Assembly (NCBI GenBank): GCA_016432525.1
Contig: CP066693.1
Coordinates: 416,815 to 480,814, forward strand
DNA from: Candidatus Woesebacteria bacterium
GTDB lineage: Bacteria > Patescibacteriota > Microgenomatia > UBA8517
Reading direction: 5' to 3'
DNA length: 64,000 bases
Both the position numbers and the translations under genes were made by a program. Below the pieces are notes generated by a model, which worked only from the letters and a program-made list of their open reading frames with translations, was not told the DNA's origin and did no database searches. Shown here in pieces: positions 26,852 through 49,350 of the stretch. Each line of letters opens with the position of its first letter. The first letter of the stretch is position 1.

Positions 26852-29068
26852 ATGAATAAAATAAGAAAATTTATAACAGCGTTATCTATAGTTTTAGTTC
26901 TATTTTTCCAAAGTTCAAATATTCTATTTGCTGAAGATTTAAATATTCCAACCCCCCCTCCTGTTCCAACAGCTCCACCAGCTCCTGTTAATAATACAGT
27001 AGTTCCAACTCCTCCCCCAACACCTACTACGCCACCGTTACCTTCATCTCCTACACCCATTCCAACGCCATCTCCTACTCCTTCTGCATCGCCAAATGCA
27101 TCTCCAGTTCCCTCCCAGTCTCCTTTAAATAGCCCAGATCCTACTGCTTCCCCTGTGCCTCTGGTAATCGGAAATACAGGCAATCAAACAGGTAACCAAA
27201 GCTCAAATGGAGAATCAGGCGCAATCATAAAAACAGGCGATGCAACAAACTCAGTAGGAATTGTCTCGAATGCTAATAGTAATTTAGCAAGTTCTCCAAG
27301 TGGGTCAGCAAGTGTAATCGATCCAATAAACACTGGCAATGGAGCATCCACTCAAAATAACAGTTCCGCCTCGATAGTTGATACTAACAACACAAACCAA
27401 CAAAACTCAGCAACAGTCGTTAATAATCTAACTCAAGGTACAGTTACAGGCATTAACACTGCCTCAAAAAATACAGGTGGGGACTCAACCATAAAAACAG
27501 GCGATGCCAACACATCGGGAAGTGTAATTACAGCAGTTAATACCAATGTCGATGGAGTTGCAGTTCACGAGTTTAATATAGCAGATGACCATATAGGCAA
27601 TATTGTAATAAATCCTACTAACGCGAATTGCACAGCAGGCTGCACTGGCAACCCGGGTACTGTTGCAAATACAGGCAACGGAGCAAATTCTCAAAACACA
27701 GCAAATCAAACAAACATAACTAATAACAATACTTTCCAAAAGAATGATGCAACCGTTGAAAATAACTTAACTCTTGCATCTGATTCAGGCCACAATCAAG
27801 CTAACAAAAACACAGACGGTAACTCAAGTATTACAACTGGAAATGCAAATACTGATGCCAATGTTTTAACTTTCGCAAACAATAATATAAGCGGCAACGT
27901 TGTCTACAATGTCGTAAATATCTTCGGAAAATTAACAGGTGATATTGTTCTTCCATCAGAAGCTTTTACTCAGGTGGCGTCAAATTCTTCAACTCCCTCC
28001 AATTCAGGTAATGGTGCAGGTTCACAAAATACAGTCAATCAAACAAACACTAATAACAATAATATTGCTCAAGTCAACAATGCAAATATAGATAACAATT
28101 TAATTTTTGATGCAACAACAGGCAGTAACGAATCAAGCAAAAACACTAATGGGGATTCCAATATTCAAACTGGAAATTCCTCAGTGACAGCTCAAGTGTT
28201 GAATGTTGCAAATTCAAATCTTTCAGGTGGTAATTGGTGGCTCGTAATAGTCAATGAAGCTGGTCATTGGGTTGGAAAAATTCTAGGCTCGCCTGACGGG
28301 GCAACATTTGCAGGATCTCAGGGAACGGAATTCACAGTTGGACCAAATGGAGAAGTAACCGCCACAAATTCAGGCAATGGTGCAGGTTCACAAAATACAG
28401 CTAATGTAACCAATACAACAAACAATAATACAACTCAAACAAATACAGCAAATGTTGTTAATAATATAAACTTGTCTGCTAATACAGGTAAAAATGAAGC
28501 AATCAAAAATACAGGTGGGGACTCAACCATAAAAACAGGCGATGCCAATATAATTGCCAACTTAGTTAATTTTGTAAATAATAATATTGTAGGCACTGGC
28601 AAACTTTTTGTAACAGTCGTAAATGTTTTTGGCTCCTGGATTGGAAACTTTGTAAGTCCAGATGCAGTTGCCAACGCAAACTCAACAAGCACTCAAACAA
28701 CAAATTCCACCAATACGAATAATGATTCTCGTCCAATCGGTGGTGCATCTAGTCAGTCTTCAAATTCAGATCCAAGTTCTTCAAATCCCATAAACAATAC
28801 GAACACGACAACACCAACAACAGCTTCAAATCCTCGAAACATTCAAAACTATATAGCCAGTATTAAAAACGATGCATCAAAAGTTAAACCAGAAGTTCCC
28901 CAGACGCCAACACAAGTTCTTGCCATGACCACAGAAAATCTAAATAATACTTTAATAAACGGTAAAAAATCCTTAAAAATTAATCTTGCCTGGCTCCTAT
29001 TACTAGCCCCAATTTTGTCATTAATTTTTATAGTCCTGCCAAAAATTAGAGGCAGATATGAGAAATAA
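26852..29068 (+). CDS. Large repetitive surface protein with Pro-rich N-terminal region and C-terminal TM anchor
   Basis: Signal peptide, PT-rich segment, many NTGNGA.../NTGGDSTIKTGDAN modules. Exact 42-bp DNA repeats at about 27470 and 28510. C-terminal hydrophobic helix plus KIRGRYEK. Confidence 0.6.
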   Translation: MNKIRKFITALSIVLVLFFQSSNILFAEDLNIPTPPPVPTAPPAPVNNTVVPTPPPTPTTPPLPSSPTPIPTPSPTPSASPNASPVPSQSPLNSPDPTASPVPLVIGNTGNQTGNQSSNGESGAIIKTGDATNSVGIVSNANSNLASSPSGSASVIDPINTGNGASTQNNSSASIVDTNNTNQQNSATVVNNLTQGTVTGINTASKNTGGDSTIKTGDANTSGSVITAVNTNVDGVAVHEFNIADDHIGNIVINPTNANCTAGCTGNPGTVANTGNGANSQNTANQTNITNNNTFQKNDATVENNLTLASDSGHNQANKNTDGNSSITTGNANTDANVLTFANNNISGNVVYNVVNIFGKLTGDIVLPSEAFTQVASNSSTPSNSGNGAGSQNTVNQTNTNNNNIAQVNNANIDNNLIFDATTGSNESSKNTNGDSNIQTGNSSVTAQVLNVANSNLSGGNWWLVIVNEAGHWVGKILGSPDGATFAGSQGTEFTVGPNGEVTATNSGNGAGSQNTANVTNTTNNNTTQTNTANVVNNINLSANTGKNEAIKNTGGDSTIKTGDANIIANLVNFVNNNIVGTGKLFVTVVNVFGSWIGNFVSPDAVANANSTSTQTTNSTNTNNDSRPIGGASSQSSNSDPSSSNPINNTNTTTPTTASNPRNIQNYIASIKNDASKVKPEVPQTPTQVLAMTTENLNNTLINGKKSLKINLAWLLLLAPILSLIFIVLPKIRGRYEK

Positions 29069-39823: not shown

Positions 39824-40303
39824 TTGAACACGAAAACAAATAAGGGTTTTACATTAATTGAGTTGTTGGTAGTTATCGGTATTATTGGAATCTTAACCGC
39901 AATCGTTTTGATTGCCGTGAATCCTGGTCGTCAGTTTGCTCAAGCCCGAGATGCTCAAAGAAGAACAGATCTTTTGGCTATAACAAATGCTGTATATCAA
40001 TTTGCAGCAGAGCATAATGGCAATTTGCCAGACACCAATGCTGATCCAAATATAAATAGCTTTCCTAGCACTGCAACATGTATTGGTTCAGGACCAACAT
40101 GTTTTAATTTAGGTGCAGCAGGAGTTGCAGAATCAACACCAGTTGGCACACCGATTGTTCCAACCTATATTGCTGGAATGCCGAAGGATCCATCAACTGG
40201 TTCTGATGCAAACACTATGTATACGATCTATAGAGATGCAAATGGTAGATTGCAAGCATCAGCAAGCGGAGAATTAACTCCATCAATTAGTGTAGTTAGG
40301 TAA
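39824..40303 (+). CDS. pilA: Type IV major pilin (PilA-like), TTG start
   Basis: RBS AAAGGGGGTGAG. NTKTNKG|FTLIELLVVIGIIGILTAIV prepilin signal. Confidence 0.75.
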   Translation: MNTKTNKGFTLIELLVVIGIIGILTAIVLIAVNPGRQFAQARDAQRRTDLLAITNAVYQFAAEHNGNLPDTNADPNINSFPSTATCIGSGPTCFNLGAAGVAESTPVGTPIVPTYIAGMPKDPSTGSDANTMYTIYRDANGRLQASASGELTPSISVVR

Positions 40304-45228: not shown

Positions 45229-45795
45229 TTAGTTATCGCAATCTTCTTTATCCCAATTCCACCCGCATCCATGTGGAGGTTTTTGTGGGATAGATATTGC
45301 CGAAAAGCTAAGATCAAATTTTGTTTTTCTTTTCTGGTATAAATTTCCCGCATTTTTATCAAAGCATATTTTAAATAAATAATTTGTTGACTTCCCTGCT
45401 TTCACAATAGATAGGGGAGTGGCCACAAAATGGCTTTTATTAAAAAAGATATTAAGGTGTGTTGGCCCATATAAATTACTTGATCCTTCAGAAATCATTA
45501 GTTTAAGTTTTAGAGGAAAAATAAAATCTCCACCTTCATGTTCTGATTTAACCCCAATAAATTGGCTATTTTTGCTTCCATTTTCTACATTTATAGTTCT
45601 TGTTTCACAATCCCCTGGCATCATATTTTTAACTTCAAATATTGGCCCAGATAAGGGAACACCCAAATAGGTAATAGTAAGTTTTCCAGCAGCTTCCACT
45701 CGCCTGCCGAGGGTTAAATCGCTTCTTACATATTTTGCCCACAAAAATACACAGACAATCAGTAAACTAAAAATAATAATTATTTTCTTTTTCAT
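45229..45795 (-). CDS. Secreted small protein, possibly TasA/camelysin-related
   Basis: Signal peptide. EVKNMMPGDCETRTINVEN resembles the NLSDIKPGDEGENTISF segment of the upstream TasA-like gene. Confidence 0.35.
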   Translation of the reverse strand: MKKKIIIIFSLLIVCVFLWAKYVRSDLTLGRRVEAAGKLTITYLGVPLSGPIFEVKNMMPGDCETRTINVENGSKNSQFIGVKSEHEGGDFIFPLKLKLMISEGSSNLYGPTHLNIFFNKSHFVATPLSIVKAGKSTNYLFKICFDKNAGNLYQKRKTKFDLSFSAISIPQKPPHGCGWNWDKEDCDN

Positions 45796-46919
45796 ATTGA
45801 TCCTACCATTGTCGGCATAACAAAATTAACAATTGCCTTTGACGAAATAAACGGAACGACTTGAGTATTTAAATCAACTATCTGCACTCCACTATCAATA
45901 ATAATAATGTCAGTTGGCGCCCCTCCATTAATTTCTGTTATATCAAAATTGGCAATCTCAAAATTATTTGCTGAAGCATTTGCCACATCCTCTGGTTTAA
46001 TTCCCAAAATAATAATTATCCTTCCTGAATTATTTGCGTCATTCATGCTAGTTTTAAGAATAACATTTCCCAAAAAATTCGTGGTATTTACCTCTGTTGC
46101 CAAATTGACCTTAGTCTTATCAAAATTAATTTCAACTCTTACAAATCCAATTTTATATCCTTTTGGATCGAGCATGAGCTTAAGATTAACATTTGGAGGG
46201 AGGCTGGAAGATGAAGGGTCAAAGTATAAAGAGGCAGGATTTTCAGATCCCGCTTCTTTAGTTATCCAAGATGTTGCTGCTCCAAGCACATTTCCAAGAC
46301 TATTGACCTTGTCCATAAAATATGAATTAGTTGTTGCAATAATTATCAAAAGTGTACCAGTCAGGGGAATGATAATACTGAGTTTGGGAATAGGTGACGA
46401 AAATTTTACCCTAGCTAAAATCTCTCTTTTAATAACTTTCAACTCTTCATAAACAATTATTGTTGCAGGAATTACTACTAAAATAAGAAATCCCTTTGGC
46501 TCCTTTGAAAAATTAGCAGCATAACCTGCGTAGGGAAGACTAAAAATAACTTTCCCAATGATATTATTTTGTGTTATATCAGCGGGATCGTTTGTTTTAT
46601 TGGCATCCCCTTTAACAGTGAAATGTGGGTCATTCAGATGCCCAGTAGGGTAGGAAAAGGAGACTATTCTGTGAGTAACAGGGTTTTTAAAGTCCCCGTT
46701 TTGAGCATAAGAAACAACATCTCCAACTTTGTAATATTTTTGGCTTGCAACAAGAGAAATACTTCCAGTTTTTATTTCAGGTTCCATTGAACCAGAAAGA
46801 ACAATATAAGCAGAATATCTGTGATTAAAAAGTCCTAAATTTAAGGCAATTAAAAATATCAGAAGCCCCAATAAAGCCCCAATAATATAAGCTATGGTTT
46901 TGTGTTTATTACCCTTCAA
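45792..46919 (-). CDS. Signal peptidase I, SipW/archaeal-type, with large C-terminal extension
   Basis: N-terminal TM followed by VLSGSMEP catalytic Ser box. 375 aa. ATGA overlap with the downstream gene. Confidence 0.65.
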   Translation of the reverse strand: MKGNKHKTIAYIIGALLGLLIFLIALNLGLFNHRYSAYIVLSGSMEPEIKTGSISLVASQKYYKVGDVVSYAQNGDFKNPVTHRIVSFSYPTGHLNDPHFTVKGDANKTNDPADITQNNIIGKVIFSLPYAGYAANFSKEPKGFLILVVIPATIIVYEELKVIKREILARVKFSSPIPKLSIIIPLTGTLLIIIATTNSYFMDKVNSLGNVLGAATSWITKEAGSENPASLYFDPSSSSLPPNVNLKLMLDPKGYKIGFVRVEINFDKTKVNLATEVNTTNFLGNVILKTSMNDANNSGRIIIILGIKPEDVANASANNFEIANFDITEINGGAPTDIIIIDSGVQIVDLNTQVVPFISSKAIVNFVMPTMVGSI

Positions 46920-47006
46920 AGCCCGGAATCAACTAACTTTAAATTAATTAACTCCAGGCTTTCCCTGTCCTACTAAGCGGGACAGGGAAAAAGCACTAAA
47001 CTATCA

Positions 47007-48284
47007 TCACTCCAATTTGGCATTTGAAAATGCCACCTGTCCCCAATCTGCACACCAACCTGCTACAGGCTGAGTTGCAAGTAATTCAACATGCACAGTT
47101 CCTGTTTTACCTGGAAATGTGAATGTAGTTGTTTTCCATACTTCAGCACCACCTGTGGAAGTTGCAATATATGAACCGATTTTCGTACCTTCAACATATA
47201 CATCAAAACTATCATTGACTGCTCCGTCAAGATGTTCCAAAGTTAATTTTGTTGCGGTACCAACTCCTGCATTCATAGTAAAAAATGCCGGTCTAGCTGC
47301 CGGATCAGCACACCCGTTGATATCACCCTTTCCCATTAAAAGCCTGAGTGTGCTATCACTGCTTCCTCCTCCGTAATTACCACCCCATCCCGGTTTAACC
47401 CAAGGGTTGCTCCATTCGGTAAGATTATGTCCTACTTCGCTTGCCACATCTCCTATATTCAAATAGTCAGAAACAGGTACAACACAACGGAAATTGGGAT
47501 TATTTCTGGATTGAACTACGTCAAAAGTGATATCTGCTTGTACTGAATCACCTTGAGCTTCATTACCTAAAGTTGATCCATCACAGATAATAGTGTGATC
47601 TGTTTCATTAACAGTCATAGTACCAGCACACCATCTTAAACCAATACAAGTTTTTTGATTTAGATCAGGATTACCTTTCAGTGGACCAAGTCCTGTGGTT
47701 GAATCAGCGAGTGCATAAGTCTTTCCATTCAAAACATCGCTTGCTGGTCCCACTTTGTTTGAAAACAAAAGCGTTTCTTTGTCATCAAACTTATTATTAC
47801 AGTCAGGATCGCTCCATGCTGTAAAATACAAACCCTTTGCAAGATCTTGAGTTTGGTGACCTGTGGTCATATTATTAATTTTTGCACAAGCCCATGCATC
47901 GTTAGTAACATGAAAGCTAATGGTATTTTCTCCTTCATCGCCTGGTTTAATATCTGAAAGATTGAAAAATCTCTCATTTACTAAACTTTTCAGCGGCCAT
48001 GTTCCATCACAAGGTTTGCCTATCAAATCCTCGCGTTGAGAAGGAATTTCAGAATTTTCTCTTTGCCACACAGAAGGCCCTCCTGTAAGCGGAATAGTAC
48101 ATACTAAACCATCATAATGGGCTTCACTGTCAATTGTTAAATCAAGTGTTCCAGCTTGTATGATATTTCCCTTTGATACTTCCTTATCACTAAAGAAAGC
48201 TCTAGAGGCACCAACTCCGGCAACCCCAACTACTCCAATTGTTAACAAACTTAAAAATATTCTTTTCAATTTTCTCACCCCCAA
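47007..48284 (-). CDS. TasA/camelysin (SipW-cognate) family secreted protein with C-terminal extra domain
   Basis: Signal peptide ending in SRAFFSDKE, plus AGTLDL and NLSDIKPGD family motifs. GC clearly higher than background. Confidence 0.7.
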   Translation of the reverse strand: MGVRKLKRIFLSLLTIGVVGVAGVGASRAFFSDKEVSKGNIIQAGTLDLTIDSEAHYDGLVCTIPLTGGPSVWQRENSEIPSQREDLIGKPCDGTWPLKSLVNERFFNLSDIKPGDEGENTISFHVTNDAWACAKINNMTTGHQTQDLAKGLYFTAWSDPDCNNKFDDKETLLFSNKVGPASDVLNGKTYALADSTTGLGPLKGNPDLNQKTCIGLRWCAGTMTVNETDHTIICDGSTLGNEAQGDSVQADITFDVVQSRNNPNFRCVVPVSDYLNIGDVASEVGHNLTEWSNPWVKPGWGGNYGGGSSDSTLRLLMGKGDINGCADPAARPAFFTMNAGVGTATKLTLEHLDGAVNDSFDVYVEGTKIGSYIATSTGGAEVWKTTTFTFPGKTGTVHVELLATQPVAGWCADWGQVAFSNAKLE

Positions 48285-48456: not shown

Positions 48457-49350
48457 ATGGAACTTGCAGCCACTCTTTCTCATTTTTTTATTCCAAGAGA
48501 ATCAAATAATCAAAAAGCTCGTCTTCTTCATCCAAGTTTTCTGACAGTCTTTTTAATAGGAATAATTATTTATCAATATGCAATTAATCTTATCTCTTTT
48601 CCTCCGTTAAGAATTTTAGGATATGCCTCAAATATTTCGACTCAAGAAGTAATTAAGCTTACAAACGTAAAAAGAGAAGAAGCAGGACTTTCAGATGTTT
48701 CAGAAAACCCGTTGCTTGATCAGGCAGCTCAGGAAAAAGCCAAAGATATGGTCACAAAAGGATATTGGGCACATGTTGCTCCAGATGGCACACAGCCTTG
48801 GAAATTTTTTGCTGATGTTGATTATAAATACAGATATGCAGGCGAAAATCTGGCTCGAGATTTTAAAGACCCAGCCTCGGCTGTTGATGCTTGGATGGCC
48901 TCTCCATCCCATAGAGATAACATGCTTTCAGGCCATTACAAAGATATTGGTGTTGCTGTAATTGACGGCCAAATTGACGGAAGAGATACAACTATAATAG
49001 TTCAACTTTTTGGAACTACGCTCTCAGAATATGCACAGGCAACGCCAGTTAAAGCAGCAGAAACCAAAAAACCAGAAGTTGCAACGGCTCCAACACCAAC
49101 CTTACCCCCTCTTCCACAAATTGCAAATACCAAAGCGATTACCCAGAGCTATCAAATCTCCCCATTTGATGCAACGCGAGCTGCAGCAATTGGGTTATCA
49201 GCTCTATTTATAACACTTTTTATTCTAGATCTTATAATTGTGAAAAGAAGAAATATAGTTCGTCTGTCAGGCCGCACTTTTGCTCATTTAAGCTTTTTTG
49301 GAATGATAATAGCAATCCTATTAGTTGCAAAAGCTGGAAACATTCTATAA
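48457..49350 (+). CDS. CAP (SCP/PR-1-like) domain protein, membrane anchored at both ends
   Basis: KGYWAHV, GENLAR, MASPSHRDNMLSGHYKDIGVAV CAP motifs. N-terminal and C-terminal TM segments. Confidence 0.75.
   Translation: MELAATLSHFFIPRESNNQKARLLHPSFLTVFLIGIIIYQYAINLISFPPLRILGYASNISTQEVIKLTNVKREEAGLSDVSENPLLDQAAQEKAKDMVTKGYWAHVAPDGTQPWKFFADVDYKYRYAGENLARDFKDPASAVDAWMASPSHRDNMLSGHYKDIGVAVIDGQIDGRDTTIIVQLFGTTLSEYAQATPVKAAETKKPEVATAPTPTLPPLPQIANTKAITQSYQISPFDATRAAAIGLSALFITLFILDLIIVKRRNIVRLSGRTFAHLSFFGMIIAILLVAKAGNIL

Follow-up and report, generated by a model that had tools for sequence, protein, structure and literature searches.

A probable TasA-type fibre operon of Candidatus Woesebacteria in which a SipW-like signal peptidase carries a candidate donor-strand module

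A window of 64,000 nucleotides from a Candidatus Woesebacteria genome (contig CP066693.1, positions 416,815 to 480,814; coordinates below count from the first letter of this window) contains three co-directional minus-strand open reading frames (ORFs), here called P1, P2 and P3, whose coordinates agree with those of an earlier note on the same DNA. The genes very probably form an operon for a TasA-type fibre with its own dedicated SipW-type signal peptidase. This peptidase, P2, has a long C-terminal extension, which we consider with the same high degree of confidence to be a fused cognate-substrate module, that is, a copy of the kind of segment that the enzyme itself would process. As the overall best explanation, we propose a native operon for a TasA-superfamily surface fibre assembled by donor-strand exchange, with a probability of roughly 0.6; signal cleavage, strand exchange and fibre formation are the parts of this proposal that we infer. 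The three genes are:

47007..48284 (-): P1, putative major TasA/CalY-type fibre subunit, 425 amino acids counted from the first TTG
45792-46919 (-): P2, signal peptidase plus C-terminal module, 375 amino acids
45229-45795 (-): P3, N-terminal membrane helix plus compact putative TasA-type core, 188 amino acids

The earlier note had placed a TasA/camelysin-type subunit next to a gene with the SGSMEP box of SipW/archaeal-type signal peptidases. Both family scores and structure matches agree with this view, the peptidase being a dedicated SipW-like enzyme of the endoplasmic reticulum (ER)/archaeal type. It had also seen in the locus a mirror of the Bacillus tapA-sipW-tasA module in another gene order. 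The TasA/SipW-like fibre operon stands, and the candidate TapA-like element is the C-terminal half of P2 and not the third gene.

A signal peptidase with an internal substrate-like module

The SGSMEP box is present in P2, and the protein has twice the length usual for a SipW-type enzyme, both as described before: its 375 residues include three predicted helices and a passenger domain, versus about 190 residues and two membrane helices in SipW. The parts of P2 are:

46425..46919 (-): signal peptidase I domain (ER/archaeal, SipW/SEC11 type), with the first transmembrane helix (TM1), the presumed catalytic domain (S44, H83, D105) and TM2
46323..46382 (-): third membrane helix, L180-S199, with the basic linker KREILARVK ahead of it and the end T197-N198-S199, small at -3/-1
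46275..46322 (-): internal donor-strand-like motif, Y200-A215 (YFMDKVNSLGNVLGAA), of the same motif class as the P1 N-terminus
45795..46274 (-): passenger domain, residues 216-375, beta-rich

The N-terminal half matches the ER/archaeal signal peptidase I model TIGR02228 with 108.7 bits over residues 7-161 (trusted cutoff 51.85) and scores 89.6 bits against the Bacillus SipW equivalog NF046067, below its cutoff of 190; therefore, P2 is a SipW-type enzyme but no orthologue of the Bacillus protein. In a 26-sequence alignment with SGSMEP, THR and GDAN boxes, D105 does not vary and S44 and H83 reach a conservation of 90% or more, and we take these residues to be the catalytic Ser, His and Asp known from SipW and SEC11. 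The AlphaFold2 (AF2) model of P2 is confident over residues 1-200, with a predicted local distance difference test (pLDDT) value of about 90 for the peptidase domain. Its best PDB matches in Foldseek are human SEC11C (7p2q_A, E 4e-6, target-normalized template modelling score (TMt) 0.60) and human SEC11A (7p2p_A, TMt 0.65), and, according to this model, the N-terminal half has a SEC11-like fold.

The additional 210 residues of P2 comprise a third membrane helix, placed by AF2 at 180-204, small residues at -3/-1, a donor-strand-like motif (SYFMDKVNSLGNVLGA) and a passenger domain. When P2 and 25 homologues are aligned, the peptidase and its membrane helix (GFILLVIIPATIIVYEELK) are followed by a basic linker, a second helix, the pattern S-Y-F-x-D-x-E-x-S-x-x-N-x-L-G-A-A, a Pro/Thr linker and a variable domain, the last being a lamin-tail domain (LTD), a dockerin, RTX or the uncharacterised type of P2. 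A hidden Markov model (HMM) of the TasA-like N-terminus, built from the first 62 residues of the P1 family, was used to search 120 P2 homologues, with reversed sequences as the control. It matches 80 of the 120, always internally and downstream of the peptidase domain (best E 3e-8; best E in the reversed control, 0.27), and P2 itself is matched at residues 191-214 with E 0.0034. At these internal sites, position -3 is S/T/A in 62/63 and position -1 is S/A/G in 63/63 homologues, and the profile continues with Y/F at +1, F at +2, D at +4, E at +6, S/T at +8, N at +11, hydrophobic residues at +12/+13 and A at +15. The position profiles of the substrate N-termini and of the P2-type internal motif run in parallel. 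Judged by these profiles, the third helix is a signal-peptide look-alike, with a basic n-region, an h-region and a c-region obeying the -3/-1 rule, and the segment behind it is a copy of the donor strand without a TasA body. A cognate signal, a predicted cleavage site, a donor strand and a passenger in the C-terminal half would together explain the double length of the protein.

The C-terminal 204 residues (172-375) gave no match to Pfam or NCBIfam at E up to 10, and a three-sequence profile of passenger residues 227-375 gave only chance matches to PDB sequences (E >0.7). No sequence homology of the module to TapA/YqxM was found in the NCBIfam, Pfam and PDB-sequence searches. What the module would share with TapA is an N-terminus resembling the donor strand of the major subunit, as indicated by the HMM and by the shared residues, namely small ones at -3/-1, aromatic ones at +1/+2, D at +4, S/T at +8 and N at +11, and given the predicted processing; it may work like TapA, a likeness in logic only, and is not a member of the TapA family. 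Two dockerin-bearing secreted proteins, P0193 and P0217, have N-terminal domains that share 45% and 37% identity, respectively, with the passenger, and these are its only resemblances. A cohesin-like identity for the passenger, considered at first, was dropped, as it was supported by nothing tested.

Fused and separate forms in related genomes

A pattern scan of 185,579 species genomes yielded 430 relatives, of which 80 loci were kept and their ORFs annotated with four HMMs. A SipW-like gene is present in 78 loci, fused in 33 and unfused in 45. Fused loci occur in Woese-, Chisholm-, Gottesman- and Amesbacteria as well as in further Microgenomates. Directly upstream, 28 of the 33 have between one and three TasA-like genes, and a P3-like gene lies directly downstream in 24, with several others cut by contig ends. 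The unfused peptidases are short, with 177-233 amino acids, and are found in Paceibacterota, Moranbacteria, Saccharibacteria, Levyibacteriota, archaea and Bacillota. In 13 of these 45 loci, a separate gene abuts or overlaps the stop codon of the peptidase gene and opens with a signal peptide and the cognate motif, and in three of them (L057, L059 and L073) the abutting gene consists of exactly a signal, a donor strand and an LTD. Since other lineages of the Candidate Phyla Radiation (CPR) thus encode the module as a separate abutting gene, P2 is a fusion of sipW with the gene next to it.

The phylogeny of the SipW-like gene, which the earlier note had suggested, was built as a neighbour-joining tree of the peptidase domain, and the fused peptidases form one clade of Microgenomates type. 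Four apparent exceptions inside this clade carry divergent or degenerate copies of the motif that had been missed by the regular expression. An origin of P2 as an assembly or frameshift artefact is ruled out by the continuous fused ORF in at least 33 independent genomes of one clade. Outside the fused clade there are two independent fusions: one (L068, 5908-7350, 480 amino acids) consists of a SipW-like peptidase, a membrane helix and a P3-like core, and the other (L053, 1920-5438, 1172 amino acids) of a SipW-like peptidase and a complete TasA-like subunit.

Two further observations were made on the related loci. On three related Microgenomates contigs, a sortase gene follows the fibre module (L001 3598-7206, L002 8164-12235 and L003 6470-8276), and genes around the module encode small secreted proteins in which a DLEISGNG motif is repeated, as well as a Pro/Ala-rich protein about 750 amino acids long; no sortase adjoins the operon in the window analysed here. 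In addition, L008, L009, L014, L015, L018, L021 and other TPA_asm records are titled uncultured Gammaproteobacteria, Bdellovibrionales or Pseudomonadales. These labels are probably wrong, as the records hold a CPR gene module with high similarity to Woesebacteria.

P1, a distant relative of TasA

The predicted parts of P1 are:

48198..48269 (-): signal peptide, residues 6-29 of the 425-amino-acid ORF, ending in S27-R28-A29 with small residues at -3/-1
48156..48197 (-): putative donor strand, F30-Q43 (FFSDKEVSKGNIIQ), directly past the predicted cut
47415..48155 (-): TasA-like beta-sandwich core, approximately residues 44-290, cysteine-rich
47010..47297 (-): C-terminal beta-sandwich domain resembling carbohydrate-binding modules (CBMs) of families 6/35/36, approximately residues 330-425

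The SipW-cognate signature AFFSDKE...AGTLDL...NLSDIKPGD reported by the earlier note is present in P1. An HMM search of the kind suggested there gave, besides the TIGR02228 match of P2, a P1 score of 22.7 bits against PF12389 (Pfam Peptidase_M73), just above the membership cutoff of 22.5. The score against TIGR04088 (SipW-dependent-type signal peptide) is 18.9 bits, with a cutoff of 19, and that against the Bacillus TasA equivalog NF046066 is 13 bits, with a cutoff of 450; therefore, P1 is a distant member of the family and not an orthologue of TasA. Its 332 homologues are mostly from Patescibacteria, and some are annotated as TasA family, CalY family or SipW-dependent signal peptide protein; they have about 260 N-terminal residues in common and variable C-terminal domains. 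PF12389 is matched by 33 of 35 aligned homologues (best E 3.7e-9).

When the D of FFSD is aligned to the D of AFND in TasA, which is cut between A27 and A28 (PMC9674648), P1 is predicted to be cleaved at SRA↓FFSD, i.e. between S27-R28-A29 and F30. The position profile of 114 P1-family N-termini has T/S at -3 and A/S at -1, and the consensus at the donor strand is FFSDTETSTGNTFTAG. The stretch T/S-x-A/S↓F-F-S-D-T-E-T-S-T-G-N-T-F-T-A-G is the most conserved part of the family, with F, F, D, E, S and N past the cut each conserved in more than 95% of the sequences.

The AF2 model of P1 (pLDDT 77.6, core mostly >80) consists of two beta-rich domains, and the cysteines C133, C219, C234 and C267 of the core are nearly invariant. 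Foldseek aligns the N-terminal domain with the TasA fibre structure 8aur_A over 187 columns (E 1.2e-4, probability 1.00, TM(target) 0.40); as far as the model goes, this fold match appears real though modest, the CPR core being larger. A search of PDB sequences with the P1 family profile gave no match at E up to 10. The C-terminal domain scores 25 bits against Pfam CBM_6, under the gathering cutoff of 28.9. Its Foldseek matches to CBMs have TM scores of 0.52-0.60, including CBM35 (2vzp_B, TMt 0.54), CBM36 (1ux7_A, 0.57) and 7ehg_C (0.60), and the alignment with CBM6E (8j3x) has 20% identity and a root mean square deviation of 3.7. In the predicted structure, this domain adopts the CBM6/35/36 beta-sandwich fold.

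P3, a candidate acceptor-only protein

45295-45705 (-): putative TasA-type core of P3, residues 31-167

The earlier note had described the third gene product as a small secreted protein that shares a motif with the first. The shared motif (AGKLTI...NMMPGD) is present, and the core is probably of TasA type; the protein has no cognate signal or donor motif and looks like a membrane-tethered, acceptor-only subunit and not like an ordinary secreted protein. A word-indexed search with P3 returned only P3 and one 87% homologue, and an exhaustive HMMER search was required to recover the family, which comprises 470 relatives, most of them 200-440 amino acids long and matching across approximately the first 170 residues. 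P3 itself has no Pfam family match. Among 36 family members, 19 have C-terminal RTX repeats, three an LTD and nine a match to PF12389; in one member, P0285, this match (22.6 bits) spans the AGxLxI...PGD region, at model positions 36-86. With an HMM of the P3 core, matches are obtained in the bodies of small TasA-like proteins that are complete, have about 185 amino acids and include the cognate signal (E 1e-6 to 1e-9), and P1 is matched co-linearly at two places (E 0.0028).

Among 150 members of the P3 family, the best E obtained with the TasA-like N-terminus HMM was 0.055, which is not significant, and the segment from the helix to the first core strand is not conserved in the family. As read from the sequences, P3 appears to be a TasA-type body behind a non-cognate membrane helix: it would offer a groove and has no recognisable donor strand. 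P3 as the equivalent of TapA is rejected, since these 150 family members lack the donor motif. An internal segment, L-x-x-F-F-x-D-S-x-x-x-x-G-x-x-L-S, is conserved in the family; the copy in the window reads FFNKS, lies at about residues 114-130 (approximately 45406-45456) and includes the nearly invariant F117. Its resemblance to the FFSD motif could reflect a built-in self-complementing strand or be a coincidence.

Proposed fibre assembly

Starting from the observed domain identities, motif conservation, fusion/fission relationship and synteny, we hypothesize that P1 is the repeating major subunit, whose signal would be removed by the P2 peptidase at approximately SRA↓FFSD, and that the new N-terminus FFSDKEVSKGNIIQ would serve as the donor strand filling the groove of the next subunit. 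The CBM6/35-like domains would line the fibre as probable glycan-binding modules. P2 would most likely also cut its own third helix at TNS↓YFMD, either in cis or in trans, and the released passenger could, through its donor strand, occupy the groove left open in the first P1 subunit and serve as primer or cap in the manner of TapA. By analogy with TapA, we give this role of a cleaved P2 module about an even chance. Through the fusion, every enzyme molecule would come with a single primer, synthesised where processing takes place. P3 would stay in the membrane through its helix and may take up the last free P1 strand as terminal acceptor and anchor, an assignment also made by analogy and tentative, with odds slightly short of even. 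Which end of the fibre each minor component occupies follows, in this proposal, from a simple polarity logic: a protein with only a strand would cap the open-groove end, and a protein with only a groove would cap the free-strand end. A hairpin past P1 and the translational coupling of P2 and P3 (see below) would fit a high ratio of the major to the minor components.

Several findings weigh against this proposal. The PF12389 match of P1 spans no more than the signal and the strand (residues 18-54, model positions 14-50), and the structural match of P1 to TasA is modest, with a TM score of 0.40 and 14% identity. When the P3 and P1 families are compared by hhalign, the last strand alone is aligned (probability 67%), and the helix of P3 may or may not be cut by another peptidase. 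The copy of the motif in P2 itself is weak (8.6 bits) and has V at +6 where 59/63 homologues have E. Structure prediction of the C-terminal extensions, also suggested by the earlier note, gave a CBM-like fold for P1; the passenger of P2 has a pLDDT <50 and no confident fold. Finally, some P2 homologues end 21-35 residues past the predicted cut, and in P0139 (221 amino acids) only 21 residues follow, the strand alone. Homologues that end about 20 residues past the motif are explained by a tethered strand, left uncleaved, no less well than by a released strand.

These short homologues lead to an alternative in which the internal site of P2 stays uncleaved, the donor strand is tethered via the third helix, the enzyme itself anchors the fibre in the membrane and nucleates it and P3 is the distal cap. 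In P0139, P0125 (235 amino acids) and L008 (221 amino acids), all of which end approximately 20-35 residues past the motif, a cleaved product would be a mere small peptide, and the helix in the AF2 model runs on through the motif. TapA of B. subtilis colocalises with the membrane and is presumed to serve as the fibre anchor (PMC10151520), and the adhesin-like C-terminal domains (RTX or LTD) of P3 relatives would suit a tip adhesin. However, small residues occupy -3 and -1 in 62 and 63 of the 63 internal sites, as they do in genuine substrates, other CPR lineages have the module as an ordinary pre-protein with its own N-terminal cognate signal, and the P3 family retains an N-terminal membrane helix without a conserved cleavage motif. 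We regard the tethered arrangement as unlikely, though it deserves consideration. The same low odds apply to the signal peptidase being a structural part of the fibre, one polypeptide that processes the subunits and holds the first of them by strand complementation. If the strand of P2 were never cut, the enzyme would be both anchor and nucleation site, assembly would be mechanically coupled to signal-peptide cleavage and the fusions in L068 and L053 would be variations on a peptidase with a built-in fibre subunit.

A more distant alternative is that no fibre is formed: P1 would be a secreted monomeric protein, either carbohydrate-binding or camelysin-like (peptidase M73), and what P2 and P3 carry as extra domains would be unrelated surface proteins with no more than the export signal in common. 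The name of PF12389 refers to a metallopeptidase, the Pfam match of P1 covers the signal region alone, its similarity to the TasA structure is modest and a CBM-like domain is typical of secreted glycan-binding proteins. On the other hand, no HExxH motif was seen in P1 when read by eye, and the post-cleavage segment is the most conserved of the family (F, F, D, E, S and N in >95% of 114 sequences), which points to a structural donor strand and not to a discarded export tag. Strand-only P2 relatives together with a syntenic acceptor-only P3 make sense only for a polar polymer, and the characterised members of the TasA superfamily are all donor-strand fibres (PMC9674648, PMC9245690, PMC12337348). 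A monomeric P1 is very unlikely, and the donor-strand fibre remains the preferred explanation.

The initiation and anchoring of TasA-type fibres are still a matter of debate. A module that is fused to the peptidase in a whole CPR clade and encoded by the adjacent gene in sister lineages provides independent "Rosetta-stone" evidence that peptidase and primer work together, since two parts joined in one lineage are expected to be partners elsewhere. From a P3 gene that is conserved and apparently acceptor-only, a polar fibre whose ends are defined is predicted. The fusion and its acceptor-only partner thereby turn the question of priming and anchoring into concrete, testable predictions. For CPR bacteria, a life attached to host cells is assumed, and to our knowledge type IV pili are the only CPR surface filaments studied so far. 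The locus points to a second, widespread CPR fibre system with exchangeable binding domains, namely CBM-like, LTD, dockerin and RTX domains. For genome annotation, long "signal peptidase I" genes of this kind should be recognised as encoding two-part proteins.

Comparison with known systems

In B. subtilis, residues 28-38 of TasA, directly after the SipW cut, form the donor strand of the fibre, and the N-terminus of TapA resembles this strand and is thought to supply the first one (PMC9674648). TapA and SipW are both of low abundance and their genes are coupled, which has been taken as a hint of physical association; gene overlap and matching low abundance are the only such hints, and TapA is poorly conserved even within Bacillus (PMC10151520). 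The tapA-sipW-tasA operon and the operon described here both encode a dedicated ER/archaeal-type signal peptidase beside its substrates. In both, the major subunit has an A/S↓(A/F)F-x-D motif, which in TasA is both the SipW cleavage context and the donor strand, and a minor component has a donor-strand-like N-terminus and no TasA body, TapA in one case and the C-terminal module of P2 in the other. The putative primer and the peptidase are coupled in both operons as well, by an overlap of the tapA stop with the sipW start in B. subtilis and by fusion here. In contrast, the gene order here is subunit, peptidase-primer and acceptor, the candidate primer is attached covalently to the C-terminus of the peptidase behind an additional membrane helix, and the passenger domain has no detectable similarity to TapA. 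Also, the P1 core is larger, cysteine-rich and extended by a CBM-like domain, and P3, as an apparently membrane-tethered, acceptor-only TasA-like protein, has no counterpart in Bacillus.

The haloarchaeal Tat-fimbriae (Tafi) and the archaeal bundling pili AbpA/AbpB are TasA-superfamily donor-strand fibres with a locus-encoded signal peptidase, TafD in the case of Tafi. A tip protein has been proposed for Tafi, and the proposed anchor TafF consists of one membrane helix and a jelly roll, the architecture of P3 (PMC12337348). AbpB has been proposed as the provider of the first complementing strand (PMC9245690). However, Tafi subunits use the Tat pathway, and their peptidase acts together with a DUF5305 partner and carries no fused strand donor. 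In Streptococcus pyogenes, the signal-peptidase homologue SipA (LepA) is needed for the polymerisation of sortase pili; it lacks catalytic residues and acts as a chaperone for these covalent pili. SipA and P2 have in common a signal-peptidase fold dedicated to one pilus locus, and 4n31 is among the structural matches of P2, whereas P2 keeps the Ser, His and Asp residues and is of the ER/archaeal type.

Patescibacteria are among the phyla with PF12389 in an AnnoTree survey (PMC9245690), and P1 belongs to this large CPR family of TasA/CalY-type proteins. Unusual peptidases with ten helices or a DUF5305 fusion have been described in TasA-type loci (preprint 10.64898/2026.01.04.697558). Literature searches combining SipW with CPR, Patescibacteria and fusion returned no description of a peptidase-substrate fusion, of a split/fused pair or of a conserved P3-type gene, although absence from these searches is not proof of novelty.

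Base composition and the question of horizontal transfer

The earlier note had described the region as noticeably richer in GC than the rest of the window and had suggested horizontal acquisition. When GC content and codon usage were computed along the window, neither claim held. The operon region has a GC content of 36.7% (z 0.86), a value reached or exceeded by 21% of windows of the same size, and the whole window has 34.9%. P1 alone is elevated (40.1%, z 1.9), which places it in the top 0.7% among windows of its length and is the one observation in favour of a recently acquired GC-rich island; P2 (34.2%) and P3 (33.2%) are both under the mean. At third codon positions, the GC content (GC3) is 0.242 in P1, 0.250 in P2 and 0.243 in P3, as compared with a mean of 0.244 for the ORFs of the window (sd 0.036, n=63), and the surplus of P1 is confined to codon positions 1 (0.498) and 2 (0.462). 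Therefore, it reflects the amino-acid composition of a protein rich in Gly, Ala and Thr; the local maximum lies in the C-terminal domain, with 43.6% across the final 155 codons. The flanks of the operon hold housekeeping genes and no mobility genes (a histidine kinase, a prenyltransferase, a CAP-domain protein and an RNase H-like protein), the order of the three genes is kept across Woese-, Chisholm-, Gottesman- and Amesbacteria, and their peptidases form one clade. Horizontal transfer is not supported, given the average GC3 and the conserved synteny, and a recent island is highly improbable.

The GC maximum of the whole window (0.416, 27-28 kb bin) is covered by an ORF of 738 amino acids (26852-29068 (+)) with no Pfam match. 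Its GC content is high at second codon positions (GC2, 0.479) and average at third positions (GC3, 0.246), and this is therefore another protein-driven composition effect.

Operon organization and genomic neighbourhood

The stop codon of P2 overlaps the start codon of P3 by four nucleotides (ATGA), and P1 and P2 are separated by a spacer of 87 nucleotides, which contains the following element:

46961..46989 (-): RNA stem-loop in the P1-P2 spacer, with a perfect 10-bp stem and a 9-nucleotide loop

The predicted free energy (dG) of this stem-loop is -24.7 kcal/mol (z -4.0), none of 200 shuffled sequences was equally stable and no clean U-tract follows the hairpin. Possible roles are those of an attenuator or of an mRNA stabiliser, by which P1 would be kept at a high level relative to P2 and P3. 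The real start of P1 is probably the TTG at 48269, 15 nucleotides inside the mechanical ORF start (TTG 48284), giving 420 amino acids, because this TTG is preceded by the purine-rich ribosome-binding site GGGGGTGAG and the public NCBI record (HYS03_01575) likewise gives 420 amino acids. A promoter scan was uninformative, with 20 matches versus 12.8 expected.

The operon is bordered by a convergent histidine kinase gene on one side and by a divergent gene for a CAP/YkwD-domain membrane protein on the other, and the wider neighbourhood is of housekeeping character (polyprenyl synthase, UbiA, RNase H-like protein and TrmD). The CAP/YkwD-family gene (48457-49350 (+), PF00188, 62.8 bits) encodes a Pro/Thr-rich linker and C-terminal membrane helices; it is transcribed divergently, and an upstream region of 172 nucleotides is common to it and the fibre operon. 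At 39824-40303 (+), an ORF with a type IV pilin N-terminal methylation motif (PF07963, E 1.5e-8) is found, so that a part of the other surface-filament system known from CPR bacteria is encoded in the window as well.

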